From the NCBI RefSeq assembly GCF_039555335.1, contig NC_092633.1, forward strand, positions 21,164,334 to 21,228,333: 64,000 nt of DNA, read 5' to 3'. The stretch is from Amphiura filiformis (lineage: Eukaryota). A program made the position numbers and the translations under genes. The notes under the pieces are model-generated. The model did not search any database and was not told the DNA's origin. It saw only the letters and a list, made by a program, of their open reading frames with translations. Shown in pieces: positions 3,691 to 50,999 of the stretch; position 1 is the stretch's first letter, and every line of letters starts with the position of its first letter.

Positions 3691-3788
<98 letters not shown>

Positions 3789-3950: not shown

Positions 3951-3952
<2 letters not shown>

Positions 3953-13870: not shown

Positions 13871-13871
13871 C

Positions 13872-21627: not shown

Positions 21628-21979
21628 TTAGGCCTATATTAAATTTTAAAATCATTAAATTTAATATGAAATAAAAATATTAACCGATCCCAGAAAGTGA
21701 GGAGGGAGGTGGCCGGGACGTGAAACGAATTATATTTTATGTGGCCGCCACATAAAAAATATTTAAAAATGGCCTAAATATTTCTTGTGTGAGAATTATT
21801 TTACAAAATTCCCCTATCTTTTTTTTTTTTTTTTTTTTTTTGTCTTCTCCTTCTTCTTCATTTTTGTTTTGATGATCTGAACAGAAATCTGTAGAATGTT
21901 TTTATTCCGTCGCTTACTTTGGCAATCAAACCCCTGACGTGTATGATGTTTTTGGGTAAATTTTGCACAAACAAGCAAA

Positions 21980-22110
21980 TTGATGTCATCGTCGGGGATG
22001 AGAGGTCATGTCTAAAAATAATCTATTACGTCAAAATTCTGGCTGCTGATTGGTTGATTAGGTAGGTGTTGCACCACCACACTGTAACTGCACAACCAGG
22101 AAGTACGTAA
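21980..22110 (+). promoter_or_regulatory. MVP: Putative TATA-less MVP promoter: two inverted CCAAT boxes (ATTGG) plus an ETS-like CAGGAAGT
   Basis: 'ctggctgctgATTGGttgATTAGGtagg' lies near 22045-22068 and 'aacCAGGAAGTacg' near 22095. No TATA is seen. It sits about 90-150 bp upstream of the first donor at 22190. Confidence 0.4.
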
Positions 22111-22190
22111 TATACACATACCACTGGTACAAATACTAGTACATTGCATCGTCCCTGGATCTGTATCAGTGAAGCCAGAGCAGAGAACAG
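22080..22190 (+). other. MVP: Probable non-coding first exon (5'UTR) of MVP. The 5' end is uncertain and the donor is at 22190/22191.
   Basis: 'cagagaacag|gtaagaattg' is a consensus donor. The next acceptor, 'ctattttttatcacag|aatataatcagaATGG', lies 800 bp downstream and directly precedes the start codon. Confidence 0.35.
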
Positions 22191-23002
22191 GTAAGAATTG
22201 ACGCTATTTTGTTCTATTCTACTATGTACAAGTATAGAGAAAATGCTTTGCATGCCATTGAAACACATAGAATGTTAATTGTAATACAAATAAAGCATTC
22301 ATTGATAGCATTCACTCATTCAATACATGAAATTGTACAGTACATGGTAGTCACCAGTCAGTCCATTGTAAAATTGTATTGATTGTCACAGTCCTTTCAC
22401 ATCTTTCATGCATGCATGTACTGTACAATGTAGTATGTTCCACACAGCAAATACAATATATCCCCAGTTTATTGTATCTCATACTCATATGAAATGAAAT
22501 GAGCTGTACCCGGGCTGTGTACCTACGTACGTACATAACATGTCATGCATGTACAAGCAAAAAAAATCTACTCTCACATCCCTGGTACAATGTATGTACT
22601 GTGGTACAAGTAAATTGAAGACCGAATTAAAAAGACTAGTTTGCAAATGATGTTTGAACATACTGCACAGGTCAGCAACGAATCTCATCACACCATTGCC
22701 CTGACGCTGGAAAACTCCATACATTTGATGTTCTGTATTCCGAAGTTGCTCAGGCTGATAGCCTCACATTTGAGGCTATAGAGACCATGTAAAGCAATGG
22801 AAGTTCAGAAGTAAACACAGCCAATATGGGTGATCGCATCAAAAATGTTGCTAAAACACAATTACAGTGCCACCCCTTGCAAGTTGCACAAATGCAAAAT
22901 TGCCATATTAAATCACATTCGTATGTACATTTTGTAACACAAATAATAATGTATATCGAATCTTTCCATCTTACCTATTTTTTATCACAGAATATAATCA
23001 GA

Positions 23003-23151
23003 ATGGATCGAAGCAAGCGTGGTGGTAGTCCATCGGACGAGTCCATTTATAGGATTCCTCCATACTTCTATCTCCATGTGTTGGACCAGAACTCAAATGT
23101 CACCAAAGTTGAGCTGGGTCCAAAAACCTACATCAGACAGGACCATGAGAG
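23003..23151 (+). CDS. MVP: MVP coding exon 1 (ATG at 23003; [49 protein letters not shown]+AG)
   Basis: Start context 'atcagaATGG' fits Kozak. The donor is 'GAGAG|gtaggt', leaving an exon end at phase 2. Position is anchored to ORF 22826-23155. Confidence 0.88.
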
Positions 23152-24180
23152 GTAGGTTTCATTTTAAAACGTAATCAACACAATTATCTAAATTTGCTTT
23201 TTTTTAAAATAAAACCGCCTTGCCATTGCCTTGTGGGCAAGGGTTTCTTATCATACTCACATTTGAGCCAAATAAAATTAATTGATAATTTTGAGAAACA
23301 AGTCTTGAATATTATTTCACCTGATCTTGCCAAGAATTGATCAGCGTAAAATTAATTTTAAACAAAATATTGTAATCAATTCATCTGGATTTACGCTATT
23401 TGATGGCTGTGGTATGATTGGTATCAGGTCTCATCCACGATGCATCATCCGGCTGAAACTATTGACCTGTGACAAATAAAGTTGAATTGACAGCAAACAT
23501 ACTGCTTTGAAAGAGGGGTCAAGGAGGCCATAATATGTTTGGGAGGACTCAACCAAGGAGGGGCACTTGGCCATAATCTTTCCAGGACACATGACGTAGC
23601 CATCAAAAAAGTTACTTGTCGATTCTCCCATGTCATTGATTGATTCAAATAATTTGTTCAGTTTTATATATGTGACACGATCTGGTCCAAGGGGGCCAAA
23701 GGAGGCATTTTTGAAAATTGAGTTACTGTAATTATTATATTATACATACAATGCTATCATTTACTGAAAACACCTAAGGTCTAGCATACTTGGTTCTAAA
23801 GTTATGAAGTTTTTTGATGTCTATTTCCTTATGTATTTTATTGTTTTTTACTCCATATTTTTACCTTCATCTCAGTTTCAAATTTGCCGCCTTTGGCCCC
23901 CATGGACCAGATCATGTCACATATAGATCCACCAGGATGATTCAGAACACTCCCTGGATATGATAATGCCAAATGTTTCTTTAGGTTTACCGTTTGAAAT
24001 ATCTACATAAGAATCATATAATTGTCTATTTTATGTAGTTTATTAATAACTCGGAGAGCAGCAGCATCTCGAAGCTGAGAAGTGGCTTGGAAGTGCCATA
24101 GCACCGCCATGCAATAAAGTAGTACAAAAGACTATGCATAATAAAATAGTGCAATAATATCACACCGTTTATACACTGTA

Positions 24181-24446
24181 TTTTGGCCAGGGGTAGCATT
24201 AAGGCCAGAAAGTCAGGGGTTGTTTTCCCATGTTTTTCACTGCCCAGCTTGCAGAAAATCCAAACACATGGGGTGAAAATTAAATCTCGGGGGTGAAAAA
24301 TATTTTGCAGTGTAGTCAGGGGTCCAAGAGTAGAGGGTCAGAGTTCACCCCCGACCTTGCACATATTCCCAATATAGAGGGTGAAAAATTAATATTTTTT
24401 AAATTTATGGGGTCATTCACCTCTACCCCTGATTTTGGCAAGCCCT
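24181..24446. mobile_element. MITE in MVP intron 1
   Basis: TIR 'TTTTGGCCAGGGGTAG...' is mirrored by '...CTACCCCTGATTTTGGCAAG'. Confidence 0.5.
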
Positions 24447-24522
24447 TCTTAATTTTAATAAATTTGAGAATTTTCTAATCGGGTTCAACCTGATAATTGT
24501 TTATTAATCCATTCTACAATAG

Positions 24523-24718
24523 AGTCATCTTTGGTCCAGAGAAGATGATTATGGTCCCACCACGACACTACTGCATCGTAGAAAACCCAGCACAGAGAGG
24601 TGAAGGTGGTGAAGTTATCGTGGATAAATTGGGCCAAGTAAAACTCAGTCATGCTGACCAAGAAATCAGACTAGCACAGGAACCATTCCCCTTATACCCT
24701 GGTGAAGTACTGAAACAG
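24523..24718 (+). CDS. MVP: MVP exon 2 ((R)[65 protein letters not shown])
   Basis: Acceptor 'ctacaatag|A' completes the AGA codon from exon 1. Donor is 'AAACAG|gtaagagc'. Position is anchored to ORF 24497-24811. Confidence 0.9.
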
Positions 24719-24774
24719 GTAAGAGCATATAGTTGTAGTTGCATGTATTGGTTTCCTGTACCTTGGTGCCAACC

Positions 24775-25150
24775 CCAGAACCCCGGGGGGGGGGGTTCTC
24801 AGTACAAATGACCATACGGGGACGTGCCGCAAATATGGGTAGCATTTTCATCCTTTTGGTATATCAATGGCCCCTTTTTCAAAGCCTATTTTGGTATATA
24901 AATGGGTCCTTTTTTCAAAATTGTCTCAATTTTTTCGGAAAATAGCCCAATTTTTCCTTAATTTAGCCAAAATTTTCCCAAAATTTGTAAAAACTAAGAC
25001 AATTTGGGTTAATTTGGCCAAAAATTTTGACTTTTGGTATATAAATGGGTCCAAATTTCTTGAAAAATTGGTATATTTATGGGTCCACTTTGAAATTCTC
25101 AGCGGCACGTCCCTACCAAAACCAAACTTGAGTACCCCCCCCCGGGCCCA
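24775..25150. mobile_element. MITE about 57 bp downstream of the MVP exon-2 donor (intron 2)
   Basis: TIR 'CCCCGGGGGGGGGGGTTCTCAGTACAAATGACCATACGGGGACGTGCCGC' is mirrored by 'GCGGCACGTCCCTACCAAAACCAAACTTGAGTACCCCCCCCCCGGGCCC'. The interior is T-rich with 'ttttggtatataaatgggtcc' subrepeats. Confidence 0.65.
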
Positions 25151-25518
25151 GAACTCTTAATATCATAGTTTTTGTCAAAGCCCTTCCCAAGTTGAAAGCC
25201 TTTTTTACTTGTGCAACAAGCTTTTTGTATACCGTACCACCTTTTCATCTCTCAAAGAGGTTTCACTGCAGTTAAGATGAAGAATTTCATTGAGATTTAC
25301 AATTTAGGCTGTTTTGATGTCTGGCGATGTCAGATGTGAGTTTTTTGTGTGGTGGATTTGGAAAAAAATAAAACAGTGAAAAAAAACCCCAGAAATTTAC
25401 TCAATCCAGCAGGAATAATGCGCAACAAGGCGCCAATTTTACGATGTGTGCTGGGGCTTTGAGACAAACTAATAAATCAAGATGGTCTAACTCTAATACT
25501 TACAAGAAAATAATACTA

Positions 25519-26540
25519 GGGTAGGACTACCAATTATCGGACAATGCCAGTTATCGGACGATTACGTGGTTTGGACCATGTGGAGTTGTTTCTTCAAGTC
25601 AACGTGAATTTATATCGCATCAAATGAAAGAACGAATACTTACTGCATTTAAATGGCTGCCTTGCAGCTGGTTCCGTTTATTATTATTTCGCAAATACGA
25701 GCGTGAATGGACTGAGTATGCCTCTTTATTATTAAAAACATGTTACTTATGAGGTAGCGTAATTCAGCATGACCAATTTGTGTGGGTCTTGAGCTTTTCA
25801 TAATTTACTAAAACTGATATATTTTTATTATTATCTTTGTAAAAGTGTGTAGTTTCTGCAGCAACATCTGACATGACCGGTTGCTAACAACGCTTCTGGC
25901 TGAATGAAGTGTCCGATAATTGGCTTGTAAAATCTGCGCATGCCCAATTACCGGACACCCTGTGGCCTTCATATAAACAGTTGCCAGCCAGCCGGCGCTG
26001 TATGTCAATTAACATGTTGCACTATGTTAGGTGTATTTTAGCTTATTTGAGCGAAGTTGAGAACGCAAATAGGGTTTGATGTTAAGTTTAAGTTATATTA
26101 TAATGTTATGATTAAAACAGTTGATGCGCCTACAATGTATAGGCCTACATTGTACCTAAATGTGGTTTGCGGTGGGGAAAATGCCACCGTGAAGTATCAG
26201 ACAATGTCCAAATATAACCCCAAATCATGAAGGAATAGACACAAACTTAACTGCATTTGGTTGAGTTGAAAAAATAGATGTGTGCCATTATTTTTGTGGG
26301 TGTCCGGTAACTGGCTGCGTAGTGTCCGATAACTGGCATAGGCGTTCGATAACTGGCAAGATGCCTCAATGTAGTTTTCAATCCATATCTATAATGGCTT
26401 GTCTCATCAATTCAAATTTTATGTTACATTTAGGGCTGTCTTTGGTCATTACGTGGATGGTCTATAGTTGGGAAAATATTCTTCAGTTTTTTAAATATTG
26501 AGCAAATTGCTTAAGTGTCCGATAATTGGTAGTCCTACCC
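25519..26540. mobile_element. TIR element of about 1 kb in MVP intron 2 (TIR GGGTAGGACTACCAATTATCGGAC, candidate 3-bp CTA TSD)
   Basis: 'aataCTA|GGGTAGGACTACCAATTATCGGACA' is mirrored by 'GTCCGATAATTGGTAGTCCTACCC|CTAcaag'. Many internal 'ccgataa(c/t)tggc' subrepeats are present. Confidence 0.65.
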
Positions 26541-27101
26541 CTACAAGAAAAGTATACTTACCAAGAAATTGTACTGTATTACAAGTTGGGAAGGAAATAT
26601 ATGATGTGATCATGCATAATTTTCCGGCAGTCTAATAGATGTTTAGATGTCAACAGGGCTGTATGTTGTATGGCATAGCTGTCATTCTCCAGACACTTGT
26701 GATGATAAACAACTAGACTGCAGGCAATTAGTCAGATATATGTGCTGGAATGCATTAACTGAAAACTGCTGGCTCTCAAGTCTCAGCGCTTTGCCCATGA
26801 AGGATCTGCATCTTGGTCAATGAGAGATAATAGGTTAAATTAAATGATAAATAATTTACGAAAATCTTCTAGCCACATGAGTCATGGTGTCATGAGCATA
26901 TTGTAGCCTTGTTCATGTAATTATTGGTTGTAAGCCCACCTTTGGTTCTGGCTCTAAGTCACCTCTATTTTTGCTGAACCATGAAATGGTATCAGCCTAT
27001 AAGAGTGAATGTTACTAGTTTACTTACTAGCTTACTTACTAGCTTACTTACTACATGTAGCTTACTTACTAGCTTACTAACTGACTAACCATTTGGTCTG
27101 A

Positions 27102-27944
27102 AATGGACATATCTCTAAATGCCACGAAGGTATGACCCCATGAGTGGTGTCATATGAAAGAGGAAAACATAAAGAATATAATAAAAATATTTCCAAACGT
27201 CGGAGGTCATCCAGGGGTCACAGGGGTCAAAAAAGGTCATTTTAACTGAAAATGCTCCGATTGAGCTTAAATTTAAATGCAATGATCCTTGTGACATTCT
27301 AAACATGTTCAAAACATTAAAAAATTTATTTAAGGTCATTAAGGGGTCATAAAGGGGTCAAAGGTCAAGTTTTCCAAAATGCTCCAATTGAGCCGAAATT
27401 TAAATGCAATGATCCTTATGACATTCTAAACATTTAAAAAATATTTTAAAATTCATTTAAGGTCATTAAGGGGCAATAAAGGGGTCAAAGGTCAAGTTTT
27501 CAAAATGCTTCAATTGAGCTGAAATTTAAATGCAATGATCCTTATGGCATTCTTAACATGTTTTAAATATTTTAAAATTCACTTAAGGTCATTAAGGGGG
27601 TCATAAGTCAAGTTTTCAAAATGCCAGCTTCTCACACGATCAAGGTATATTAAAACGGCAATTAATGAAACAGTCTTATTAAAATTAATGCTATCCTGCA
27701 CAGTATTGCTGCTTGATCAGATCGTCACAGTCATCCGCCTAACTTATGGTACATGTACCTCGTGCCCTTGCAAAGCTGCACAGTATTGCTGCTTGATCAG
27801 ATCGTCACAGTCATCCGCCTAACTTATGGTACCTCGTGCCCTTTGCAAGGGCACAGTTGCTCTAGTTCATATTCTTTACTTTTCCTCTTTCATTAACACC
27901 AGTTGGGCGGTCATACCTTCGTAGCATTTCGATATAATGTCCAT
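27102..27944. mobile_element. TIR element carrying an internal satellite of about 125 bp (roughly 3.5 copies at 27180-27630), in MVP intron 2
   Basis: TIR 'AATGGACATATCTCTAAATGCCACGAAGGTATGACC' is mirrored by 'GGTCATACCTTCGTAGCATTTCGATATAATGTCCATT'. Internal units run 'ggtcattaaggggtcataaaggggtcaaaggtcaagttttc...aaatgcaatgatcct'. A 12-mer (tagcttacttac)n at 27005-27075 precedes it. Confidence 0.6.
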
Positions 27945-28305
27945 TACAGACTCCGGGTGACAGTGGTATAGGCCTACCACAATATACTGCCGAAGCCACA
28001 TGGTTCAGCTATGGTGTGGTTATCGCTCTAGTTTAAATATACTGGAAACAAAGGTGCACTCGGGGTATAGGCTAAGTGGTCACAAGTTACCAAATCAATG
28101 CTTTGCCCTCATATAAAAAAATATCAGTTAGAAATTGACATTCCATATACCGTACTTAAAACATTGACTAGATGATGCAAGTTACTCGTACATCGAACAT
28201 GAATGTTATACAAATTACAGAGATTTTTTTTAAAATTCAAGTCCTAGCCCCTAACCCCCAGTTATAAGCCCATATGCACCCCAGTCCCCCATCTACCCCC
28301 AGTGC

Positions 28306-28656
28306 CCGGGGGGTCCACTTCCATTGTGGCCTGTACACCATCCACAATAATCAACCTTTGAAAAGCACCCTAAACAAGGATTTAACCCTTGGTTAAAACG
28401 ATACCCTAAACATTTAACATGCGCCTGTTTTCACACCCTAAACAGGGATTTTATTCCTAGCATCAAATTTCATACCCTAAATTCCATTTCCGCGTATTAG
28501 CAATTGCAATTTTGCTACCCATTTCCCCAATTTTTCATGTTTTTGACACCCTAAACATGATATGCGCGTATCGTGCCTACCCACGAAAAACTACCCTTTT
28601 TACACGTTTTTATTATCGCGGATGGTGTACAGGCCACAATGGGAGTGACCCCCGGG
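28306..28656. mobile_element. MITE with 'accctaaaca' subrepeats (MVP intron 2). A related motif is at 28700-28870 and again at 46890-47100.
   Basis: TIR 'CCCGGGGGGTCCACTTCCATTGTGGCCTGTACACCATCC' is mirrored by 'GGATGGTGTACAGGCCACAATGGGAGTGACCCCCGGG'. The shared 45-bp core 'ttgattggcRtaaccYgaccYaccctaaaaKtaggcccgaccc' occurs at 28707 and 46892. Confidence 0.6.
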
Positions 28657-29853
28657 CCCCAGTGTGGGTTATACCAGAGTGGCTAGGCCTAAAAAAAATT
28701 GTTTGATTGGCATAACCTGACCCACCCTAAAAGTAGGCCCGACCCAACTTTTTTTTTTTTTTATATACAAAAAAAATAGTAAAATATAAAAAGAATAAAT
28801 AAAAATCAATAAATATTTAAAAAAGTTCCAAAGCCTTTATCAAACAAAATTTACAACTTAAAATATATACAAATATAACAAAGGGTGAACATATAAAGTA
28901 TCATAAATATGAAATTACAGAGAAATGATGATGGTAATTGATATATGTGCTATCTTTTTCCAAAAAGTGTAAACTGTTTCAGGTTGCTCTCAGTCAGAAT
29001 ACGCAATGACGGTATTTAAAATTGAAATTAATTGAAATTGGAGGATGGTGGGGAAATTTATATTAGAAGTAAAATAGGCATTAATTTTATTCGGAAACCC
29101 AATAAACATGTATCATTGCTTTTAAAATGCATAATATTAAACATCACAATCTTACAACTTTTTTTTAAATTTACTATGTCTGTACAACATCATACCATTT
29201 TACAGTAACGACCAGGTTGATTATTATGTTAAAATGGATTGAGTCATTTGTGGGGTTGCATACATGTAATTGATTATATGGTGTGATCATAGACTTAAAT
29301 AGATATTATGGTAGTACGACTTGAGGGTATTTTTAAAAAAACATTGTGTATTAAACTGTATGTGTGCAGTAGACAGTAACTATTATGATAGATTAGCATG
29401 TCAATAAGACAGGGGTAAAAAAAACTTGTTTCTTGTTCCCTCTCTCTTCCTTTTTTAAGGCCGCTTCAAATTTATTTATATTTTTTAATATCAATTTGAT
29501 ATCAATGATATTACACAATGTACATGATCATGATAATTATCACTAAATAATAACACTGTATAAATGTCAGTAATTCCATAAGGAATTAGTCAAATTTACA
29601 AGAAAAATTTACGTGTTATTTTTGCATGAATGCTTGAAAGGGACAACATTTTATGTTATACATAAGTTTTGATGAATTAAATTTTCCAAATATATCGGGT
29701 CACCTTCTTTGGCAAGACATGAAAAATGGCAAAACAAAATTTACCGGTTTTACAGCAATATATATATAGGGCTGAATTCTGCCAAGAAAGACATATGTTT
29801 TAAACTAACACATGATTTATTTCTAACATGTTTATTAACCATTCCTTCTGCAG

Positions 29854-30204
29854 GCTGTTGCTGCCCTCAAAGTTGTGCCAGCCAACACTGCCCTGAGACT
29901 GCGTGCAATCTTAGACTACGAAGATGACTCCGGTGAAAAGAAAGTTGCAGGAGATGAATGGCTCTTTGAAGGACCTGGAACCTACATTCCTCGTAAGGAA
30001 GTTGTGGTTGATGAGACCATCAGAGCCACAGTGGTAAAGTCCAACCAAGCGATTAAGCTCCGAGCACGTAAAGAACTTGTAGATAAAAGCGGAGAAAAGC
30101 GAGTGACCGGAGAGGAATGGTTGGAAAGGAAGATTGGTGCTTATATGCCTGGTGCATATGAAGAAGTGGTTGGAGTTGTTAATGCCTATGTACTCACAGA
30201 AAAG
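29854..30204 (+). CDS. MVP: MVP exon 3 ([61 protein letters not shown]...[35 protein letters not shown])
   Basis: Acceptor 'ttccttctgcag|GCT', donor 'GAAAAG|gtaagtat'. It spans 117 codons in phase 0-0. Confidence 0.92.
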
Positions 30205-30589
30205 GTAAGTATTTTATGTGATGCTTTCTTACAAGTGCACTCGTGAACACCAGGGTAGTACCGGGCCCAAAAGGGGGAAACATTTTCAAAACGTCCGCTG
30301 ACCCACTATGGAAATAATTTTACTGGGACAAATGCAAAATTTGCATGTTTAATGCTAAAATGGGTCAAAATTTAGAACAATTGTGGCCTAAGGCATAAAA
30401 CATGGCCAACAGAAGATATATTTTAAGCCAGATGGGGTGCAGCTTGATGCCCCTCACCTGACAGTAAGCCTCTGGTGTACACCTCAGGGGACAGTTATTT
30501 GGAGCCAGAGAAGGCCATCCCACATGACAGTACTCCTCTGGTGAATGGCTCAGGACACAGTCATGATCAGATTATTTGTCATATCTTTG

Positions 30590-30790
30590 AACCAAAAGTA
30601 ATTGTACAGGTGTGTTTAAGAGTATACAGTCAGTCTACCCTGAAGTACAAAGTACCAACGCAAACGCACACATTGTGCCGACTTTGAAGGTACGCATACC
30701 TGCCGCAGAGATGCAGCACTGCAAACTGTTTATGCGCTGTATACACGTACGTTGTTACTTTGTGCTTCAGAGTGGGCAAACTGTACATGG
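30590..30790. mobile_element. Palindromic MITE of about 160 bp in MVP intron 3; a paralog lies at 49241-49400
   Basis: 'cagtcagtctaccctgaagtacaaagtaccaacgca...gttgttactttgtgcttcagagtgggcaaactgta' shows about 85% identity to 49241-49400. Confidence 0.6.
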
Positions 30791-31074
30791 TTGTATCAGA
30801 GCTCATAAATTCATCAGGGCTTACATAAATATGAATAACATAAGAACAATGAAGGTACAATATATGGCTCAATTCTAAAACATGTAGGACAGGGAAGTAA
30901 TTGTGCTAGTATCTTTCTATCCATTTCCTGTGTACCATCTAGCCATGACCCAACTGTACAGGTAAACGTGCATTATGTGGGTGACATATCCTATGAAGAG
31001 AGTCAAATATGTACTCTTTAGCTTAATGTTGTAAAATGAAACTACATTAAGGGATCTAAAATGAGCGTTTATTG

Positions 31075-31693
31075 CGTTTCGACAGTATTTTTTGTGGGAC
31101 ATGAGAGCACCTCGGACCTATCGAATTGCATTCTGAATCTGAAGCATGTCTTTCTGATATCAAATAATTTTCATTTTTGAAAATCACAATATAATACAAA
31201 TTTTATGACAAATTATAAAAATTTGATATTTTTCAAATTTTGATATATAACAGTCCTCAAAGTAAATTATATAAATCTAATGATATATTCTTAAAGTGTA
31301 TGTAGCAGGGAGGAAAAGCCGACGGTCAATTGAAAATTTTGACCTTTCATATTGAAGATATGGATTTTTCCCAAAAAGACCTAATTTTTTTGTGTGTTTT
31401 GGGGAAAAAAATCCATATCTTCAATACGAAAGGTCAAAATTTTCAATTGATCGTCGGCTTTTCATCACACCTACATACACTTTAAGTATAAATCATCAGA
31501 TTTATAAAGTTTACTTCAAGTACTGTTAAATATCAAAAATATCAATTTTTAATGATTTGCCATAAAATGTGTATTAAATTGCGAATTTCAAAAAATCAAA
31601 ATTATTTGATATCAGAATGACATTCTTCGTATTCAGAATGCAATTCGATATGTCTGATGTGCTCGGATGTCCCAAAATAAATACTGTCCAAAC
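31075..31693. mobile_element. Hairpin element of about 620 bp with near-perfect 300-bp arms, in MVP intron 3
   Basis: The left arm starts 'cgtttcgacagtattttttgtgggacatgagagcacctcggacctatcgaattgcattctgaat' and is the reverse complement of the right arm, which ends 'attcagaatgcaattcgatatgtctgatgtgctcggatgtcccaaaataaatactgtccaaacg'. The centre is near 31385. Confidence 0.75.
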
Positions 31694-32781: not shown

Positions 32782-32907
32782 AAAGCATTACATATGCGTG
32801 CTGTACGCACCTTCAAGGATGGCCAAGGTGAAGTAAGGAAGAATGGAGAGGAGTGGCTTATTAAATGCACACAAGCAGATGCACACATTCCTAATGTATA
32901 TGAAGAG
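32782..32907 (+). CDS. MVP: MVP exon 4 (KALHMRAVRTFKDGQGEVRKNGEEWLIKCTQADAHIPNVYEE)
   Basis: Acceptor 'tgtttgtttacag|AAA', donor 'GAAGAG|gtaagcat'. It spans 42 codons and matches human TALHLRARRNFRD...GEEWLV...HVPDVHEE. Confidence 0.9.
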
Positions 32908-32957
32908 GTAAGCATTGAAAAGGACATTCACAATACAAACCATCCTTAGGCATGTTA

Positions 32958-33241
32958 GGAACCAGTTACAAACACTTGTAACAGGGGGCCTGATGCAAAA
33001 AGAAAAAATCAGATTTTGTTTTCAGGGCCCCCTTTTGGACCTAAATTTATTTTCAACCCCCCCTTTTGGCCATGAAAAATCAACCTCAACCACATAGGAA
33101 ATAGTCTAAACTCATGTTCTACGAGAAAAAAATAAGGTGACATTTTTAAAGGCCCCTTCATAGGGTTTTAAAAATTCAGGGCTCCCCTTTTACATCAGCC
33201 CCCCCCCGCACAGCGCACTACAAGTGTTTGTGAACGGTCCC
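32958..33241. mobile_element. Second copy of the GGGACCGTTCACAAACACTTGT MITE family, in MVP intron 4, with TTA TSD
   Basis: See feature 21356-21627. Both copies share the 'gggggcctga/ttttggacc' interior. Confidence 0.7.
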
Positions 33242-34235
33242 TTAACATTATTGTCCATAGGGTCTGCTATGTTGTTAGAAACTGGATTCTCAATGTCCAC
33301 TTCATGGCATAATGTCGCAATTTATATTTAGTGCAGATTTATAAATATTTGCTTTTGACTGGAATGGTATGTAAAATATTCAAGCAAGGTCACTTCTTGA
33401 AAAGTAGTGTCAAGACATAACATTTGTGATGCAATAAAACAGAACAAATTGTTTGCTGTGTAAAAATAGGATTATAACATTTTTGACTTATATTTGAAGG
33501 ATATCATATGCTGAAAATCCCATTAAAATTGGAATTAGACACTTGTAAGATATGGTCAATTTTTGAAAACAGAGAAATAGATATGAAAGACTAAGACCTA
33601 TTCTTAACTCAAATTGATTTTATCCGCAATTATAAACAACTTATTTTGCTTGAATTCTTCACACATTTTTACAGGATGAAAATAGTATGTATTTCTCCAG
33701 TTCTGTATTAAAAATTTGAAGGAAACAAAATACCAAAAAATGGGATCTTTTAAACAGGGAGGAAAGACTCTGGTCCAATGGGCTATTGAAAAAAGAGGGA
33801 TGATAAGGCCTAAGAAAAATAATGTTATGTTTCCTGTAAAAAAAAATTGTATCCATTCTTTAAAACAAAAGAATAAAAAAAATGTTGACCAGTGAAAGCA
33901 CTCCAATGAGTTTACCAAATTTAAATAGCATAGGCGTTTAATTTTGCTTTCTATTTATGTTTACTGCTATATATTGAATATACATCATTATAAAATATAA
34001 TAGGTTGTGGTTGTTTTTCTGGTATTAACATTTAAATCTATGTATACAAATCACATGGCAATAAATAGGAACAACAAGTTTTTCTTTCTTTCAAAAAGTT
34101 GGTAAAATTTGTACTGACTTTCGGCACATTTTTACACTTGAGATTATCGAGGTGAACTGGTTTTCAAGAATACACATGTGCATTTTCTGTGCAATTTCAT
34201 ATCTGAGCTAACTCTCTTTAATATCACTATTGTAG

Positions 34236-34346
34236 GTAGTAGGAGTGACTCAAATCACCACAATGAGCAACCGTCAGTACTGTGTCATCTTAGATCCTGT
34301 TGGAGCTGATGGAAAACCACAACTAGGAAACAAAAAACTTATCAAG
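34236..34346 (+). CDS. MVP: MVP exon 5 ([37 protein letters not shown])
   Basis: Acceptor 'cactattgtag|GTA', donor 'ATCAAG|gtaagtgt'. It spans 37 codons and matches human [18 protein letters not shown]. Confidence 0.9.
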
Positions 34347-34679
34347 GTAAGTGTTGTGGTGTACGCGCGTGGGCGAGATAGATAGGGAGTGGGCAAACTT
34401 ATCCAAACATTGGTACTTTTATGTGTTTCTCTCTTTCACCCACTCTTCCTCTGCTTGTGTTGTGTGTTTTTATATTTGACATGTTGCTTGTTTGTTCTTT
34501 GGTGTTTGATTTCATAAGTATTACTGTCACCCATAGCTTCGTCTCCCTGGAAATTAAAATTACCTTATTATTCTAGAAACAATAATAGAGAATTAAAAAT
34601 TGTTCAATCCTCATATAATTGAAACTCTGTGAGCAACATATACAGACTTGACTTATATTTTGTTTTATTTAACCTGGTA

Positions 34680-34905
34680 GATCATTCATTGTTGAAACTC
34701 TGCTCTCCCTTGATGCCCAGAGACCATGGTGAGGTGTACAAACAGCCAGGTGTTCCCCAGATCGGAACTGGCTGTGAAGCCATTGTCATCCACTGCATCT
34801 CTCCCACAATTCAAATACTGTAATGAAGTTTGCCCCAGCCAGGGATCGAACCAGGACCTCCTGCACTAAAGTCAAAGACCACAACCACTGGGTCATGCCT
34901 CTCTC
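34680..34905 (-). mobile_element. tRNA-derived SINE (box A TGACCCAGTGG, box B GGTTCGATCCC) in MVP intron 5
   Basis: The minus strand reads 'GGCATGACCCAGTGGTTGTGGTCTTTGACTTTAGTGCAGGAGGTCCTGGTTCGATCCCTGGCTGGGGCAAAC...'. ORF 34629-34823 is an artefact of the body. Confidence 0.5.
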
Positions 34906-34985
34906 TCTAATCAAATTGAGTAAAATGTTTCTATGTTAACTTACAGTGTAATTTTGACGAATAAATCTTTTTCATTTGTGAACAG

Positions 34986-35111
34986 GGTGAGAAGTCATTT
35001 TTCCTTCAGCCTGGAGAGCGACTGGAGAAAGGTATTCAGAATGTGTATGTGATGGGTGAGGACGAGGGTCTGATTCTGAGAGCACAGGAAGCCTTCAAAG
35101 ATACAGATGCT
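34986..35111 (+). CDS. MVP: MVP exon 6 ([42 protein letters not shown])
   Basis: Acceptor 'tgtgaacag|GGT', donor 'GATGCT|gtgagtaa'. It matches human [23 protein letters not shown]. Confidence 0.9.
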
Positions 35112-35360
35112 GTGAGTAACTATTCCATCCCAATATGGGCATCAAAATTAACACATACTTACTGTTTTTATCAGTGTTAAATTGCCACAACAGTATTTTG
35201 TGATGAAGATTAGCACTTGATCCTGATCAGATGCGTTCCATTCCGAGCCAAAATAATATGAAGTAATTCATATTTTTTTAAGTGCAGTTTGTTATCAAAT
35301 GATTATATCAGTGATGTTCTGTATGGACATATTTAATTGTTTAAATTATTTCTATTTTAG

Positions 35361-35510
35361 GACAAAGACAGACTACCTGGAGACAAATGGATGATCAGAG
35401 GACCAAAGGAATATGTGCCACCTGTAGAAGTAGAGGTTGTTTCACAAAGAAAGGCAATTCCCCTGGATGAAAATGAGGGTATCTACATCAGGGATACTAA
35501 GTCTGGAAAG
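35361..35510 (+). CDS. MVP: MVP exon 7 ([50 protein letters not shown])
   Basis: Acceptor 'tttctattttag|GAC', donor 'GGAAAG|gtaaggaa'. It matches human [19 protein letters not shown]. Confidence 0.9.
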
Positions 35511-35939
35511 GTAAGGAACACAATGGTTACAAACAGTGAGCATTAGTAATCCAACTATATCAACCCTCTAATTGTTTCAAGCCAGGCACATATCCAGTGT
35601 TCCAAGGGGTCATTTTAGAATTTTGTCTGGGTTGAAGGGGAAGCAGTTACCAAAAAAAGAGCCACTTTTAAGGAAAATTTCATTCTTTCCATCATTATTT
35701 CATCTAAAGATGTATATCTAGGGGAAGTTTACCCTGCCAACAACTGATTATACCACTTCTTGAAGCAATGTGATCTTTGTGCCTTGAGGATATGAAAACT
35801 GAATAATTACAGGATTAAGTTGCTTAAAGAATCGGCTAATTGGCAATAATATAAAAGATGTGCTTTTATATAATATAATAAAGTCTGCGGCAGAGAAGAA
35901 CAGCAGTTGTTTACATTTTGAGAGCGTGCACAGCGTAAA

Positions 35940-36010
35940 CACGGAAGTGGGGTTCTGATTGGCTGACAATCAGAGCAACATACTGATAATCTGATTGGCT
36001 GATTACGTTG
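35940..36010. promoter_or_regulatory. ETS-like CGGAAGT plus two inverted CCAAT boxes (ctgATTGGctga) in MVP intron 7, about 200 bp upstream of exon 8
   Basis: The sequence is 'acGGAAGTggggttctgATTGGctgacaatcagagcaacatactgataatctgATTGGctgattacg'. It uses the same motif set as the putative MVP promoter, 'gctgATTGGttgATTAGG...CAGGAAGT'. Confidence 0.35.
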
Positions 36011-36213
36011 GTCGGCGCAGATCGGTGCATTTGAAGGGAACTCAAAGCTCCATGTATGTCGCTCATTAACAGGGCGCTTGCGTCAATCTGAGCAAAGGAC
36101 GGGCGTTCTTCTCTGAAACCAAGTGTAGTGTCACCCTAATATCCCCCTTCCCTTTCCTGCATAAAGTAAAACAAAAAAAATCCACATACTCACATTATGA
36201 TATTGTATTACAG

Positions 36214-36452
36214 GTCCGTGCAATCGCTGGTGAAACCTACATGCTAAACCAAGATGAGGAACTGTGGCAGAAGGAACTCCCACCAGCTGTAGAGAGTCTC
36301 TTGCAGAGTGCAAAGGATCCCTTAGCTGATAGAAGTGATCGTTCATCCAGCAGTTCCTCTTCAAGGGCAAGAGATAGGACAAAAGTAGTGACTTTCAGGG
36401 TACCACACAATGCAGCTGTGCAGATTTATGATTACAAAGAAAAGAAAGCAAG
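36214..36452 (+). CDS. MVP: MVP exon 8 ([79 protein letters not shown]+AG)
   Basis: Acceptor 'tgtattacag|GTC', donor 'GCAAG|gtaagga' (exon end phase 2). Position is anchored to ORF 36241-36456. It matches human [24 protein letters not shown]...[19 protein letters not shown]. Confidence 0.9.
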
Positions 36453-36972
36453 GTAAGGAGAATAAATGTATTATGGGTGTCTGTGACCATGTTTGGCATT
36501 GCATGACACTCATGGAGGACAAAATAGTGGTCCTATGGATGTTAGTGTAACATGCTGTTCCTGTAATGTGTGCGGGCCATACGCTTCATGCGCAAACCAT
36601 TGAACAACTGAAGCTTAAAATATCCTCTCCTGATAAATCCTAGAGATACTTTATTTTGGTCCCCATATTCAACAACCCAGTATGGAGGAATTACCTTAGT
36701 ATTGTATAATAGCTATTTCTTTTATTTCCAAACATCAGTTTCAAAAAATAAATTACAATCCCAACTTTTACTTCAACCATCTTTGATGGTTTTCTGTTTT
36801 CTGAAAACTTATATGGCTTGGCATTATTATATCAGCAAAACAAATTCCATGCTGTGGTGGAATTATCATTTAACCTCAGCTGATGGTCTGATAATATGCA
36901 GTGAGTAGTCCATACATTTGACATAGTCTTGTTTTCCTTACACAAATATTTTTTTAAATCTTAATATAACAG

Positions 36973-37170
36973 AGTTGTGTTTGGACCAGAGCTAGTCATG
37001 TTGGGCCCTGACGAGCAGTTTACACAGCTGAGCCTGTCAGGTGGCAAGCCAAAGAGACCTAATGTCATCAAATCTCTGTGCCTTCTACTGGGTCCAGATT
37101 TCTGTACTGATATCATTACTATTGAGACATCTGACCATGCCAGACTACAGCTTCAACTGTCTTATAATTG
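36973..37170 (+). CDS. MVP: MVP exon 9 ((R)[65 protein letters not shown]+TG)
   Basis: Acceptor 'taatataacag|A', donor 'AATTG|gtatgtat' (exon end phase 2). Position is anchored to ORF 36977-37291. It matches human [29 protein letters not shown]...[32 protein letters not shown]. Confidence 0.9.
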
Positions 37171-37940
37171 GTATGTATTCAATCTTGGTATTGACGGATT
37201 TCACAAGAGACACAAGTGTTACTGTTCTATAAAAAAATTAACATGCCCAAACTTTATTGGTCAACCATTAAATGAAAACCTTCATACATAAATATATTCA
37301 TGTTCATAGCAATTTAATTTGTTAATGAAGGGCTTTTTTTTTCAAACTTCACAAAATTATAATTAATGTTTATACTTTGATCATAATATATTATTTTGTT
37401 CTTGTGATATCTCATCAGTAGCATCACATAATAGTAATTCAAGTCCTATAATTTGTCTACTTTCTTTAACATACAAGTCAACTAATAGCATTCTTAACAT
37501 GGGTCTACTTTTTGGCATAATGGTAAAAGCCTAACATTTCCTGCCTATTACAAGCTGACCAAACTATAGGAAACTTGGAGACTGTGTACATAATTTTTCA
37601 GTTCCCTGTTACATTGAATTAACTGTTTTAGCCAATCTTTTATTTCTACTTTCTTGATATAAATGTACAAATTTAATGTATAAAAATAATAAGTTTCTAT
37701 GTGTTCTGTGTAGAGCAGATGATGCACATTGGGATTATCTTTATACAAGCATTTAAATGTCTGCAGCAAAAGCAGCTGTATAAACTTTTCAAATAGACAA
37801 ACATTTTATCAGCATGTTTGGACAAGTCCATTGAGTTAAATGAAATACTGTAAAATGCACACAAGTGTTGAGTCTTGAGTTTGTCCATTACCTCATCACT
37901 TTCTCATATCTACTACGTATTTGTTTTTTGTTTGTTTCAG

Positions 37941-38085
37941 GCATTTTGAGGTTGCTAACAAGGAAGATCCCAAGGAAGCAGCCAAACTGTTTAGTGTACC
38001 AGATTTTGTGGGTGATGCCTGCAAGGCTATTGCTTCAAGAATCAGAGGAGCTGTAGCTGGAGTACAGTTTGATGACTTTCATAAG
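37941..38085 (+). CDS. MVP: MVP exon 10 ((W)[48 protein letters not shown])
   Basis: Acceptor 'ttgtttgtttcag|G' completes TGG. Donor is 'CATAAG|gttagaaa'. Position is anchored to ORF 37921-38109. It is near-identical to human HFEV...[35 protein letters not shown]. Confidence 0.9.
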
Positions 38086-38807
38086 GTTAGAAAACAAATC
38101 TCACTTTAAACAGGTAGCCCCATCTGGCCAGTTCTCCACAGAAGAACTGACAATACACCTGTTACTTTGATGACAGGCAGAACAGAATTTATATGGATAA
38201 ATTTTAACCTTGACGAATTCCACAAGGAACTTGAACCAAAAGTGGGGCTTTCACTTTAAATCACATTAGGGACACAAGCTTGCACATTCAACATCAACCT
38301 GGATTTTATGTAACTACGTTCTTATTGCTCAGTTGTGATTATGATGCAGATGTAATATACGGTCCTAGTAAGTTGAAAATGAGAGCGGTCATTTGATGAG
38401 AAATAAACCCCCCCCCACACACACACACCCACCCACCCAACACACACACACATCACAAAATGGTATTTGGGAGATGTTTTTAATGTGCTTAGTTGGCAAA
38501 CGTTGGCTGCAACTTGCAAATGGTCAAATTAGTCATGAAAATGTCTCAAGTAGACCTTTTTTCTGACAGTTAGGAAAGAAATTTTGCGATAAAAAACACA
38601 AGCAAACAAAATCATTTGTTGAGGGATATATTCTAAAATAGTGTAATATTATGATTTTATGATTTGTAGAGGGGTCATCTCTGGATTGGATGGCTAGAAA
38701 AGGGAGTCGTTATAACCACACAAAGATAACTAAATAATACATAGTGATATCAAGAAGTGGCCACATAATATTTAATTAATATCGATCATTTATTATATTT
38801 CAAACAG

Positions 38808-39019
38808 AACTCTGCCAAAATCATCCGAGCCTCCGTGTTTGGCCTAGATGACAAGATGAAAGTGCGTGACAGGTTTCTGTTCCCTCAGAATAACCTAGTG
38901 TTCACCAGCATTGATATCCAGTCTGTGGAACCAGTGGACCAGAGAACCAGAGATTCCTTGCAGAAGTCTGTGCAGCTTGCCATTGAGATCACAACCAACT
39001 CTCAGGAAGCTGCTGCAAG
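38808..39019 (+). CDS. MVP: MVP exon 11 ([70 protein letters not shown]+AG)
   Basis: Acceptor 'atatttcaaacag|AAC', donor 'GCAAG|gtaactag' (exon end phase 2). Position is anchored to ORF 38835-39023. It matches human NSARIIRTAVFGF...[48 protein letters not shown]. Confidence 0.9.
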
Positions 39020-39732
39020 GTAACTAGTGACATGGAAATGAACTAGTCTACATTAAACCATGGTGTATGGTGCATTTGCCATTTTGAACATTTCCTCTTT
39101 TTGAGGAATGATTAAATACCTTTTGGTGGAAGAGTGACAATGAATGATACATTTGTTTTAAATTTAGTTGAGCTTGAATTTCTGGAATCACTGGTCGGGC
39201 CGGTGAAACCCCCGTCGCTATACCAGTCGGTGATCATGTGGTTGGCACCGGATTATAGAAAGCATCAATACTTTTCTAGATATTGATAATTTTGTAAATG
39301 ATACCTTGATATTTTTTTTCCCAAATTGCTATTCTGAGTAATGGGCCAATTAGTTTTCTACCTTACACAGGATAGTATAGGGATTATCATAGTTCAACTG
39401 TTATTTATTGATTAAATAAACCCCTTTTTTAATAAGTACTAGGATTTGAAAGTCCACTTAGTCCCACAGTCAGATACCATGAAATTAAGAATTCCAAAAT
39501 TCATTTTTTTAAGGGAATGTCATCTTTAAAGGCCTATAGAACTCAAAAACATGTCTGGCGACTTGTTCCGGGTTCTGTTGGAGCTGGTCACATATTGTAT
39601 TCTGAATGCATGTAATTTGACAGAACACTAAGTTCAGTGGCCTGAATAGGAGATTGTTAAAGAGATTCTTCTTAAAACACCTGTTGGTAAAATAAAACTA
39701 TATTTCTGATACACATTATTTCTTATAAACAG

Positions 39733-39976
39733 ACATGAAGCAGAGCGTCTTGAACAGGAGGCGAAGGGTCGTCTTGAACGTCAGAAGATTATTGATGAAG
39801 CAGAGGCAGAGAAAGCTCGTAAAGAGCTCCTGGAACTGCAGGCCAACAGTGCAGCTGTTGAGAGTACTGGTCAAGCTAAGGCAGAGGCCCAGTCTCGTGC
39901 GGAGGCAGCCCGTATTGAAGGTGAAGCAGCAGTAGAACAAGCCAAGCTTAAGGCTGAGGCTAGCAAGATTGATGCT
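39733..39976 (+). CDS. MVP: MVP exon 12 ((R)[81 protein letters not shown]), start of the cap-helix coiled coil
   Basis: Acceptor 'tcttataaacag|A', donor 'GATGCT|gtaagttg'. ORF 39735-39935 is the +1 frame of this exon and is an artefact. It matches human [65 protein letters not shown]. Confidence 0.9.
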
Positions 39977-40377
39977 GTAAGTTGCAGATTAATTCTTATT
40001 GATAGTGAACGTATCTTCTTAACACTAAATTGTTTACAGATACTCATTAAAGCCTCAACCTGACTATTGGTTACCAAATAAGGAAGAATGGAAATGTAAA
40101 GAGTCATTTTTAAACCCTGAACTGAAATCAATTATATTCCATCATTTTTAACATCTTAGATCATGACATGTGAAAACTACCATGTGGAACATAAATATTA
40201 TTAATCCTACCAGTTTACAGTTTGACAGGGCCCCATCCAGATCTTGTAAATTAATCTCCTTTCATGAATACTAATGATTTAGTTTTTTGCCTTTACCTAT
40301 CTGTGACTAAATCTAGCCTTGCCATAATTGAGTCTCTTTTTCATTGACTGAATCTCGAAATCATATTTTTTATTCAG

Positions 40378-40566
40378 GAATCTGAGCTGGAGCGCCTAAC
40401 CAGAGCTAGGGAAGCTGAAACCAAATATGTCAGGGAACAGAATGAGTTGGAGATCTCTAAGTCCAAGGATATGTCTGAAATTGAGACACAGAAATTCAAG
40501 AACATGGTGACTTCGATTGGAGCTGACACCATTAAGGCCATCGCTATGTCAGGACCAGAGATGCAG
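40378..40566 (+). CDS. MVP: MVP exon 13 (ESELERLTRAREAETKYVREQNELEISKSKDMSEIETQKFKNMVTSIGADTIKAIAMSGPEMQ)
   Basis: Acceptor 'ttttttattcag|GAA', donor 'ATGCAG|gtaggttt'. It spans 63 codons and matches human ...[26 protein letters not shown]. Confidence 0.9.
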
Positions 40567-40589
40567 GTAGGTTTCCATATTGATAATAT

Positions 40590-40960
40590 TAGTGTAGTGT
40601 TACATGTAGGTAATTAATGTTTTCATGCATGCAAAACAATTGAAATTCCCTTACACAGGAAGGTGTGCGCCATCCTGCGCTTTCCTGTGCTAGCCTTCTT
40701 TTGTTAAAATCCTGGGCAGGGTGTATCACTGATGCATATAATCCATCCGTTTTATGACCGAGCTTTCCTGAGGCGCGCGCTTCTTTCTGTGTGAAAACGT
40801 GGTAGGGTATTTCAATATGAGCCCTTATATACCTGGGTAGAGAGTAGGAGAGGTAAAGCACCTTACTCATGGGTACAGCACATATGGCCAAAGCGGGACT
40901 TGAACCCACAATCTCACGATCATGAGGCCTCTGCTCTACCCTGGACCACATATTGTAGAC
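40590..40960 (-). mobile_element. tRNA-derived SINE in MVP intron 13
   Basis: The minus strand reads 'GTGGTCCAGGGTAGAGCAGAGGCCTCATGATCGTGAGATTGTGGGTTCAAGTCCCGC...'. ORF 40589-40951 ('VEQRPHDREIVGSSPALA...') is the typical spurious translation. Confidence 0.5.
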
Positions 40961-41092
40961 CTGAAATCTTGCTTCATTATTGCTTTATGAAAATTTCTAA
41001 GAGACAATTAGGAGACCATTATAAGTAAAACACATTTGCAAAGTTATAAATTCACTTTAACAGTTTTATTGTAATCATTTTATCTTATCCAG

Positions 41093-41242
41093 GTGAAACT
41101 TCTGAAGTCTTTGGGCCTCAAGTCAACATTGATTACAGATGGTTCCAATCCCATCAACCTGTTCAACACAGCTTCTGGTCTCATTGGAGGTATTCCTGCT
41201 GTGACCTCCAAACCTGGTCCAGATGACAGTGATGAAGAGTAA
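41093..41242 (+). CDS. MVP: MVP exon 14, terminal ([49 protein letters not shown]), TAA stop at 41240-41242
   Basis: Acceptor 'ttatcttatccag|GTG'. It matches human [32 protein letters not shown]. The acidic tail is short, and no canonical AATAAA was found within about 600 bp downstream. Confidence 0.9.
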
Positions 41243-42009
41243 ACACATTATAAGAAACAACCCACCTTCTGATAAACTCTGTGTTCATATATATTTTTTT
41301 CTTCAGAATATCAGATATGCAGTTGCTTAATAGATGCTTCAGTATAATGATAAATGTGTAGGCATATAATAGTATTGCTATGTGTAAATTGTCACAATTA
41401 CTCATAGTGGATAGTAAGTGCCTTTGAATTTTGTTTCTCAATTTGTGTGATTTTGAAATGGTGTGCCAATAAGTCCTATACATTGGTGTATGGAGGACTG
41501 TCAGTATCTAGGGTGCCAATTATCAGTTAAACTGAAGTTAATTGTACAGTTTAATAAGCATGTTTTGATCAATATAATTGATAGCTGAATGCAATAACAA
41601 CAACAAGCATAACTCCTACTGTGTATTTTTCATGCATGAATACTGAAGAGAATTTCTTAACAGAAACTATGGAACCTTTGGCAAGGCTCTATGATTGAAC
41701 CATATCATACCATGCATCTGTATCAAGTTTCTTAAAGGTATACACACACCAGTGATACAAAGGAGAAAACACATATTTAGCATCAAGTGTCCGAACATTT
41801 ACATTATGCCAAATATGTAAATATAGCAATAAGTGAGGAAATTGGTGAACAGATTTTGTGAAAAATATGCCGGGAAAATGTTTATTTATAACACACAGGT
41901 TAAAAAAAAAGCTGTGTAAATTGGTTTTCTATACATTAGATATTGTGTCTCAGAACCAGTTCATCTATATTAACTAAGGTATATGTACTATATTTTTCAT
42001 ATCTTAAGA

Positions 42010-47802: not shown

Positions 47803-47805
<3 letters not shown>

Positions 47806-47878
<73 letters not shown>
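47806..47878. repeat. (ATT)n microsatellite of about 24 units
   Basis: Perfect tta repeats are visible. Confidence 0.95.
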
Positions 47879-50880: not shown

Positions 50881-50924
50881 TATTTATTTTATTTATTTAT
50901 TTAATGACGTTTTGGGGCTCGAGA

Positions 50925-50936
50925 GAACGGACACAC

Positions 50937-50999
<63 letters not shown>

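Follow-up and report, generated by a model that had tools for sequence, protein, structure and literature searches.

A complete major vault protein gene in Amphiura filiformis with ancient introns and the usual non-vertebrate termini

We identified a complete major vault protein (MVP) gene on the forward strand of the 64,000-nucleotide stretch of Amphiura filiformis DNA that was analysed as a whole (hereafter the window). The locus is an unambiguous MVP orthologue. We regard it as almost certainly the single, intact and functional MVP orthologue of an echinoderm genome, with ancestral introns and the normal termini of MVPs outside the vertebrates.

Gene model and orthology

The gene has 14 coding exons between positions 23003 and 41242 (+ strand), which were joined into one ORF of 2586 nt encoding 861 aa, with no internal stops, no frameshifts and consistent intron phases. 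All 13 introns have GT...AG boundaries and sum to 15,654 nt; the GC content is 46% in the exons vs 35% in the introns. The joining thus reproduced what a first-pass annotation of this DNA had proposed, namely 14 coding exons and about 861 aa with canonical junctions and consistent phases, about 16 kb of introns in total and every exon intact; the peptides it quoted, from exon 8 and from the terminus (PGPDDSDEE), were all found in the translation. When the window was searched with human MVP (tblastn), matches were obtained to each of the 14 exons in collinear order, well beyond what chance would give. The coding exons are listed below.

23003-23151, + strand: exon 1, ATG at 23003, residues 1-50, ends in phase 2, donor GTAGGT
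24523-24718, + strand: exon 2, 196 nt, repeat domains R1/R2
29854-30204, + strand: exon 3, 351 nt, Vault repeats R3-R4
32782-32907, + strand: exon 4, 126 nt
34236-34346, + strand: exon 5, 111 nt
34986-35111, + strand: exon 6, 126 nt
35361-35510, + strand: exon 7, 150 nt
36214-36452, + strand: exon 8, 239 nt, repeat-8 loop with a run of seven serines (Ser7)
36973-37170, + strand: exon 9, 198 nt, R9 and the start of the shoulder
37941-38085, + strand: exon 10, 145 nt, shoulder
38808-39019, + strand: exon 11, 212 nt, shoulder, without the mammalian 10-aa insert
39733-39976, + strand: exon 12, 244 nt, cap-helix
40378-40566, + strand: exon 13, 189 nt, cap-helix
41093-41242, + strand: exon 14, cap-ring and a 17-aa acidic tail, stop TAA at 41240-41242

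The start at ATG 23003 is supported by the homology of its MDRSKRG to MDRGKRG, MDKGKR and MDRSR of orthologues, and its Kozak context has A at -3 and G at +4.

All five Pfam families were detected in the 861-aa protein above their curated cut-offs (PF01505, PF17794, PF17796, PF17795 and the shoulder family PF11978). Vault was found in four stretches (8.8e-64) and Vault_2 in two, followed by Vault_4 at residues 385-443, Vault_3 at 461-522 and MVP_shoulder at 523-641 (1.1e-53). A phmmer comparison with the MVP chains of the PDB (rat 4V60/4HL8; human; 9Z4W and 11DR) returned E=0, with residues 11-844 of the window protein collinear with residues 3-850 of the chains from rat (4V60/4HL8) and human. 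In the alignment of orthologues, the motifs of the cap-helix and the cap-ring are kept.

The window protein is 80-82% identical to MVPs of sea stars, crinoids, sea urchins and hemichordates, and the best match from the echinoderm classes sampled does not exceed 82%. No exact or at least 90% identical protein was present in the protein collection searched; thus, the gene model stands without an independent annotation. The closest sequence found was a cDNA, the Logan transcript ERR6349665_55845 (P0001/L001, here referred to as L001), with 87% protein identity. It aligned to the window in 14 blocks which break at the predicted junctions, with about 79% nucleotide identity across the 14 exons. L001 has the PPYFYLHV motif of the window MVP and a similar tail (GIPGITSRP...), but it belongs to another species (dS about 1.6) and carries SGSQASKP in its repeat-8 loop in place of the Ser7 run. 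The two proteins together formed the sister group to Asteroidea, within the echinoderms, in a neighbour-joining tree. From this one protein tree and by elimination, as none of the echinoderm classes sampled comes closer than 82%, the source is most probably an ophiuroid (brittle star). Across 860 codons, dN/dS between the window MVP and L001 was 0.055, at a dS of about 1.6 that places the synonymous sites near saturation. The window MVP gene is under purifying selection.

Upstream and downstream regions

Upstream of the start codon, we identified two candidate elements, the first by a motif match and the second from the sequence alone.

22045-22058, + strand: inverted CCAAT / Y-box-like motif CTGATTGGTTGA
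22080-22190, + strand: candidate non-coding 5′ exon, donor AACAG/GTAAGA at 22190/22191

The inverted CCAAT at 22049 is the sole ATTGG/CCAAT in 21500-22300; the human MVP promoter is TATA-less and has an inverted CCAAT box (PMC7916137). An acceptor AG that matches the candidate 5′ exon lies at 22989-22990, 13 nt upstream of the ATG. The UTRs of L001 gave no alignment with the window, and the best local score of its 5′UTR against the candidate 5′ exon (17) was below the shuffled mean (20.5). Downstream of the gene, no AATAAA was found within 1.5 kb after the stop, and ATTAAA does not occur before 42810.

Since no canonical AATAAA lies that close to the stop and the promoter and the 5′ exon remain candidates, one could suppose that this copy has lost its function recently or is not expressed, as a unitary pseudogene or a silent duplicate which still looks intact. 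We consider this extremely improbable, as the frame runs uninterrupted through 861 codons and 13 canonical introns, all domains are intact and above the Pfam cut-offs, and the low dN/dS was obtained against a relative near synonymous saturation. An MVP retrocopy was also considered and is ruled out because the copy has introns in the ancestral structure.

Intron positions and intronic repeats

Intron positions were compared by alignment column and phase in seven species, in which the bat Miniopterus and Python represent the vertebrates. All 13 introns of the window gene are present in Asterias at the same position and phase. Saccoglossus (acorn worm), Lottia (limpet) and Python each share 11 of the 13 and Porites (coral) 9, and each of the 13 is found in at least one non-echinoderm. 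All of these introns are ancient. The first-pass annotation had suggested the same from an exon count equal to that of human MVP, and this part of its reasoning does not hold. The human gene has 15 exons (PMC7916137, from which the human count was taken), and Miniopterus, which provided the mammalian intron positions, has 14 coding exons, as in the window and consistent with the human count. Ten of the 13 positions coincide between the window and the bat (57/2, 123/0, 240/0, 320/0, 415/0, 501/2, 567/2, 696/2, 778/0 and 841/0), while the window introns at alignment columns 282/0, 365/0 and 616/0 have no bat counterpart and the bat introns at 164/1, 208/1 and 735/2 have none in the window. Each of the two genes thus has three introns that the other lacks, and the equal exon count is a coincidence. 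The proposed vertebrate-like architecture is better described as identical to that of Asterias.

The lengths of single exons follow the same pattern of sharing. Exon 9 has 198 nt in all seven species, and the 196 nt of exon 2 are also found in Asterias, Lottia, Python and the bat. The window gene and the 'major vault protein-like' gene of Asterias amurensis (P0002, GCA_032118995.1), whose protein is 82% identical to the window MVP, agree in nucleotide length at 11 of their 12 internal exons. The stretch that forms exon 3 is undivided in the window and in Asterias, whereas intron 164/1 cuts it in the vertebrates, Lottia, Saccoglossus and Porites.

The introns of the window gene amount to 15.7 kb and hold elements bounded by terminal inverted repeats (TIRs), in comparison with about 7.4 kb of introns in Asterias. 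Four such elements were identified in introns 1 to 3.

23667-23925: intron 1, MITE-like element of 259 bp with 50-nt TIRs (90%)
27096-27951: intron 2, TIR-bounded element of 856 bp that contains 127-nt tandem repeats at 27249-27628
28306-28656: intron 2, MITE-like element of 351 bp with TIRs of about 48 nt, flanked by the 8-bp direct repeat CCCCAGTG
31075-31694: intron 3, near-palindromic (foldback) element of 620 bp, arms at 31075-31369 and 31407-31694 (85-89%)

All four have the form of MITEs, being shorter than 1 kb, non-coding and TIR-bounded. The direct repeat CCCCAGTG may be a hAT-like target-site duplication, and a possible TA duplication flanks 23667-23925; no target-site duplication was found at 27096-27951 or 31075-31694. 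The introns had been described as heavily colonised by MITEs and SINEs. MITE-like elements are indeed present, but detectably repeated or TIR-bounded sequence makes up about 2.1 of the 15.65 kb (about 13%), all of it in introns 1-4, and no SINEs were recovered: ARAGORN predicted no tRNA-like genes in the window and Rfam at gathering thresholds gave no matches in the 64 kb, vault RNA included, both being searches that could miss degenerate SINEs.

Termini, repeat-8 loop and the predicted vault

The MVP of the window could instead be read as a protein of truly derived, lineage-specific design, at which a new N-terminal extension, an inserted poly-Ser stretch and a replaced C-terminus would lead to altered vault properties. 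The first-pass annotation had leaned this way in its account of both termini and of a poly-Ser insertion, and all three places do set the protein apart from human MVP. We found this very unlikely, and for the termini it is largely refuted. Sixteen residues precede RIPP in the window protein, 3 of which are K/R, and the invertebrate medians are 15 aa and 3 K/R. The C-tail is 17 aa long and 5 of its final 8 residues are acidic, where the invertebrate medians are 17 and 4. The basic-then-acidic pattern of the N-terminus was also found in sea stars, crinoids, hemichordates, amphioxus, molluscs, a coral and a sponge. The basic N-terminus and the short acidic C-terminus are thus the usual invertebrate state. 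Asterias has both a basic N-terminus and a short tail, with an N-terminal peptide 8 aa longer, and a tail shorter and less acidic, than those of the window protein.

The comparison with mammals points in the same direction. Mammalian MVPs (human MVP/LRP, 893 aa; rat, 4V60/4HL8) have the domain order of the window protein, R1-R9, shoulder, cap-helix and cap-ring, but a short non-basic N-terminus (MATEEF) and a 10-aa shoulder insert (rat 608-620), neither of which is present in the window protein. The tail of placental MVPs has about 40 aa, in contrast to 17 in the window. Among the sequences compared, a long tail occurs only in placental mammals and the tail is short in python, frog, caecilian and platypus; hence, what had been taken for the replacement of a vertebrate tail is the absence of a feature of placental mammals.

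The third place is the repeat-8 loop in exon 8, where residues 447-453 are seven consecutive serines. We placed this run by sequence alignment to rat MVP and by the published disordered segments. The loop aligns with rat residues of about 438-452, and in the rat crystal structure the segment 429-448 is disordered (PMC3595041); thus, the alignment that the first-pass annotation had suggested puts the run in a loop which is disordered in rat. Modelling places the repeat-8 loop at the inner vault wall, in the form of a shelf.

The run is unique among the 144 complete MVPs compared, in which the longest serine run in this loop is 2, and this speaks for a derived design. However, the loop of the window protein has 14 aa, which is the invertebrate median and 2 aa below the length in mammals, so the stretch is not an insertion and only its composition is unusual. 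The serines are encoded by mixed TCN and AGY codons (TCA TCC AGC AGT TCC TCT TCA), and the loop sequence differs in every species, as with the SGSQASKP of L001 and the mixed sequence of Asterias. Perhaps the serines could form a species-specific ring lining the lumen, with 78 x 7 phosphorylatable residues, and alter the binding of cargo or RNA or the opening of the vault, but we consider this very unlikely.

The preferred reading remains that of an ordinary MVP. Judging from its rat, human and sea-urchin homologues, the 861-aa product would form the shell of the vault in 78 copies; the sea-urchin SpMVP forms barrel-shaped vaults that are almost identical to those of rat (Stewart et al. 2005, PMC550661). 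The partners of MVP in the vault are vPARP, TEP1 and vault RNA, and the absence of an Rfam match to vault RNA applies to the 64 kb of the window. The nine N-terminal beta-repeat domains would build the barrel, with the N-termini coming together at the waist on the inside of the particle, and would be followed by the shoulder domain, the long coiled coil of the cap-helix that is expected to drive assembly, and the cap-ring. The loop that appears to have drifted to seven serines would be the only species-specific oddity.

The locus matters mainly for annotation and is otherwise of small significance. An echinoderm lineage which is absent, at 90% identity or above, from the protein collection searched now has a clean, full-length MVP gene model, and the seven-species comparison offers an example of MVP introns whose positions have largely been kept between cnidarians and vertebrates. 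As to the differences from human MVP, the derived state is that of the vertebrates and, for the tail and the shoulder insert, that of the placental mammals.

MVP gene model and its product

MVP-like peptides were found on the + strand at ~23.0–41.2 kb in the ORF listing and frame translations of the window. Human major vault protein (MVP), with a query sequence 100% identical to database cluster P0121, matched 14 segments in order by tblastn, and reading the sequence around the segment ends gave unique GT...AG junctions at each of them. The joined model (23003–41242, +) consists of the following coding exons:

23003–23151, +, coding exon 1
24523–24718, +, coding exon 2
29854–30204, +, coding exon 3
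32782–32907, +, coding exon 4
34236–34346, +, coding exon 5
34986–35111, +, coding exon 6
35361–35510, +, coding exon 7
36214–36452, +, coding exon 8
36973–37170, +, coding exon 9
37941–38085, +, coding exon 10
38808–39019, +, coding exon 11
39733–39976, +, coding exon 12
40378–40566, +, coding exon 13
41093–41242, +, coding exon 14

The exons join to 2586 nt (861 aa, no internal stops) and the introns total 15,654 nt; all the numbers and peptides of the first-pass annotation, which had described a complete gene of 14 coding exons and about 861 aa, were thus reproduced. GC content is 46% in exons vs 35% in introns. The start, MDRSKRG, is homologous to MDRGKRG, MDKGKR and MDRSR of relatives and lies in a good Kozak context.

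Searching the protein collection retrieved only MVPs, with the protein (P0001) of a Logan transcript from run ERR6349665 as the best match (87% identity), followed by those of sea stars, crinoids, sea urchins and hemichordates (80–82%) and a sea cucumber (78%). Every echinoderm class except the brittle stars was sampled and none exceeded 82%, so the window probably derives from a brittle star. In a neighbour-joining tree, the window protein and P0001 together were sister to sea stars within echinoderms. Aligned to the window, the cDNA of this transcript (L001) falls into exactly 14 blocks (72–85% nucleotide identity by BLAST), the ends of which coincide with the predicted junctions within 1–3 nt of over-extension, except for exon 11, where the block is displaced by 3–11 nt. 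Since dN/dS between the two is 0.055 with dS ~1.6 (Nei-Gojobori, 860 codons), strong purifying selection on the window MVP is indicated.

Pfam detected Vault (4 stretches), Vault_2 (2), Vault_4, Vault_3 and MVP_shoulder, far above curated cut-offs, and phmmer against PDB sequences gave E=0 to the rat and human MVP chains (4V60/4HL8, 9Z4W, 11DR), collinear from residue 11 to 844. Sea-urchin MVP builds vaults nearly identical to those of rat (PMC550661). By homology, the window MVP would form a 78-mer vault shell in A. filiformis, its N-termini lying within the lumen at waist level and oligomerisation being driven by the cap-helix (PMC7916137, PMC3595041).

A strong acceptor (ttttttatcacag/AATATAATCAGAATG, the slash marking the junction) 13 nt upstream of the ATG and a good donor (AACAG/GTAAGA) at 22190/22191 are compatible, at the level of motifs, with a candidate non-coding first exon, and an inverted CCAAT (CTGATTGGTT, 22045–22058) with a putative TATA-less, Y-box-type promoter, the type reported for human MVP (PMC7916137). 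The L001 5′UTR does not align to the 5′ region of the window, and AATAAA was not found within 1.5 kb of the stop.

Repeats within and around the gene

The introns had been described as rich in MITEs and SINEs. Four short elements bounded by terminal inverted repeats (TIRs) were identified in introns 1–3:

23667–23925, TIR-bounded element
27096–27951, TIR-bounded element with internal 127-nt tandem repeats
28306–28656, TIR-bounded element with flanking 8-bp direct repeat CCCCAGTG
31075–31694, 620-bp foldback

The third, with its direct repeat, is consistent with a hAT-type MITE. For three more intron stretches, diverged copies occur at other places in the window. Within-window comparison detected ~2.1 kb of repeats in total (~13% of intronic sequence), confined to introns 1–4, with none in introns 5–13 (249–770 nt). 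The SINEs, on the other hand, are unsupported, since neither ARAGORN nor Rfam gave any tRNA-like or RNA-family match.

Outside the gene, 63-nt tandem-repeat arrays in opposite orientations (13807–14312, 14866–14928 and 15978–16454; 13870–14125 vs 16207–16382 are 92–95% complementary) flank a second inverted pair (14926–15158/15674–15906), and together, upstream of MVP, they resemble one large foldback or transposon of composite build. More foldback or TIR elements are a long hairpin at 59167–59756 (257-nt arms, 90% complementary, 76-nt loop) and a 152-nt inverted pair (58803–58954/61407–61558, 97% identity, 2.45 kb apart). A low-complexity array of ~500 bp with a 9-nt period at 3475–3990, which its different frames translate as poly-Y, poly-I or poly-T, has a related inverted copy at 47803–47912. 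ORF fragments at 296–658 (-) and 13046–13393 (+) show, by eye, motifs like those of non-LTR retrotransposon reverse transcriptases (…SKASGPDNIP…, …FVDFYKAFDSV…), with no significant Pfam match. A tandem segmental duplication (50035–51383 and 52626–54039, period ~2.6 kb) has eight collinear blocks 90–99% identical, with (TTTA)n-like low-complexity tracts in both copies. Downstream of MVP, the ORF at 55495–55779 (+; …NYCRNPDQDPTGPWC…) carries a kringle domain (PF00051, E=6.8e-17, above cut-off) and probably belongs, as a single exon, to another gene that contains this domain.

Protein termini and the serine-rich loop

Termini and loop were measured in two sets of complete MVPs, 62 retrieved by the window search (mostly invertebrate) and 82 retrieved by the human search (mostly mammalian).

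Protein features (window; invertebrate median; mammal-dominated set)
N-terminal length before RIPP: 16 aa; 15 aa; 8 aa
K/R in the stretch before RIPP: 3; 3; 0
Repeat-8 loop (DPLADR to KT[RK]V): 14 aa; 14 aa; 16 aa
C-tail after GL(I/L)G: 17 aa; 17 aa; 40 aa
Acidic residues in last 8: 5; 4; 0

The basic-then-acidic N-terminus is also found in sea stars, crinoids, hemichordates, amphioxus, molluscs, a coral and a sponge, and the short C-tail is shared with python, Xenopus, a caecilian and platypus; the long C-tail and the 10-aa shoulder insert are mammalian, not vertebrate-wide. As the terminal values lie near the invertebrate medians and these patterns recur elsewhere, the termini, earlier taken as lineage-specific, show the ancestral condition typical of invertebrates, and it is the vertebrate forms that are derived. 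Nor is there a poly-Ser insertion: the loop has the median invertebrate length, and its HMMER alignment to the rat and human structure chains requires a 2-residue gap on the window side.

The serine run within it is nevertheless compositionally unique, as the longest there in 144 other MVPs is 2; P0001 has SGSQASKP in its place. Its codons are mixed TCN and AGY. This hepta-serine run, in a disordered and fast-evolving loop, is the only truly unusual detail of the window MVP and is most likely neutral drift.

Separately, P0027 (Apostichopus japonicus MVP-like isoform X2, 1022 aa) carries 'GGPEMQVRDKCVL' repeated in tandem over ~160 aa, precisely where exons 13 and 14 meet (…GPEMQ/V…). This seems to be an artefact of annotation or assembly, or else a junction duplicated in tandem, and not a real insertion.

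Intron positions across animals

Proteins of six annotated MVP loci were mapped exactly onto their own DNA with a GT/GC-AG spliced matcher, and intron positions and phases were projected onto a common protein alignment (labels give alignment column/phase).

Window introns shared
Asterias (sea star): 13/13
Saccoglossus (acorn worm): 11/13
Lottia (limpet): 11/13
Python (L006): 11/13
Miniopterus (bat, L007): 10/13
Porites (coral, L005): 9/13, plus two offset by 1 nt or by one alignment column

Each of the 13 introns recurs in one or more non-echinoderms and is therefore ancient, a stronger result than the antiquity first proposed. The argument from equal exon counts for a vertebrate-like architecture does not hold, the match in number being a coincidence. 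Miniopterus also has 14 coding exons, in agreement with the human MVP count, reported as 15 exons (PMC7916137), but reaches them by different introns, lacking 282/0, 365/0 and 616/0 and having 164/1, 208/1 and 735/2 instead. In architecture, the window gene is typical of echinoderms and not specifically vertebrate-like; Asterias matches it in nucleotide length at 11 of the 12 internal exons.

Intron 164/1, present in Saccoglossus, Lottia, Porites and both vertebrates and absent from the window and Asterias, is ancestral and was lost in the latter two, which suggests a lineage-specific event in echinoderms. Among the compared loci, 208/1 and 735/2 occur only in Python and Miniopterus, while losses of 365/0 and 616/0 in the mammal are suggested. 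Porites has six positions absent from the window, including the two near matches listed above.

The first-pass observation is correct and careful, its comparative claims are in part wrong, and the gene itself is ordinary, its novelty being limited to a new MVP orthologue from a poorly sampled echinoderm lineage. The suggested lineage-specific intron events that set the coral, python and bat loci apart from the window merit a wider survey.
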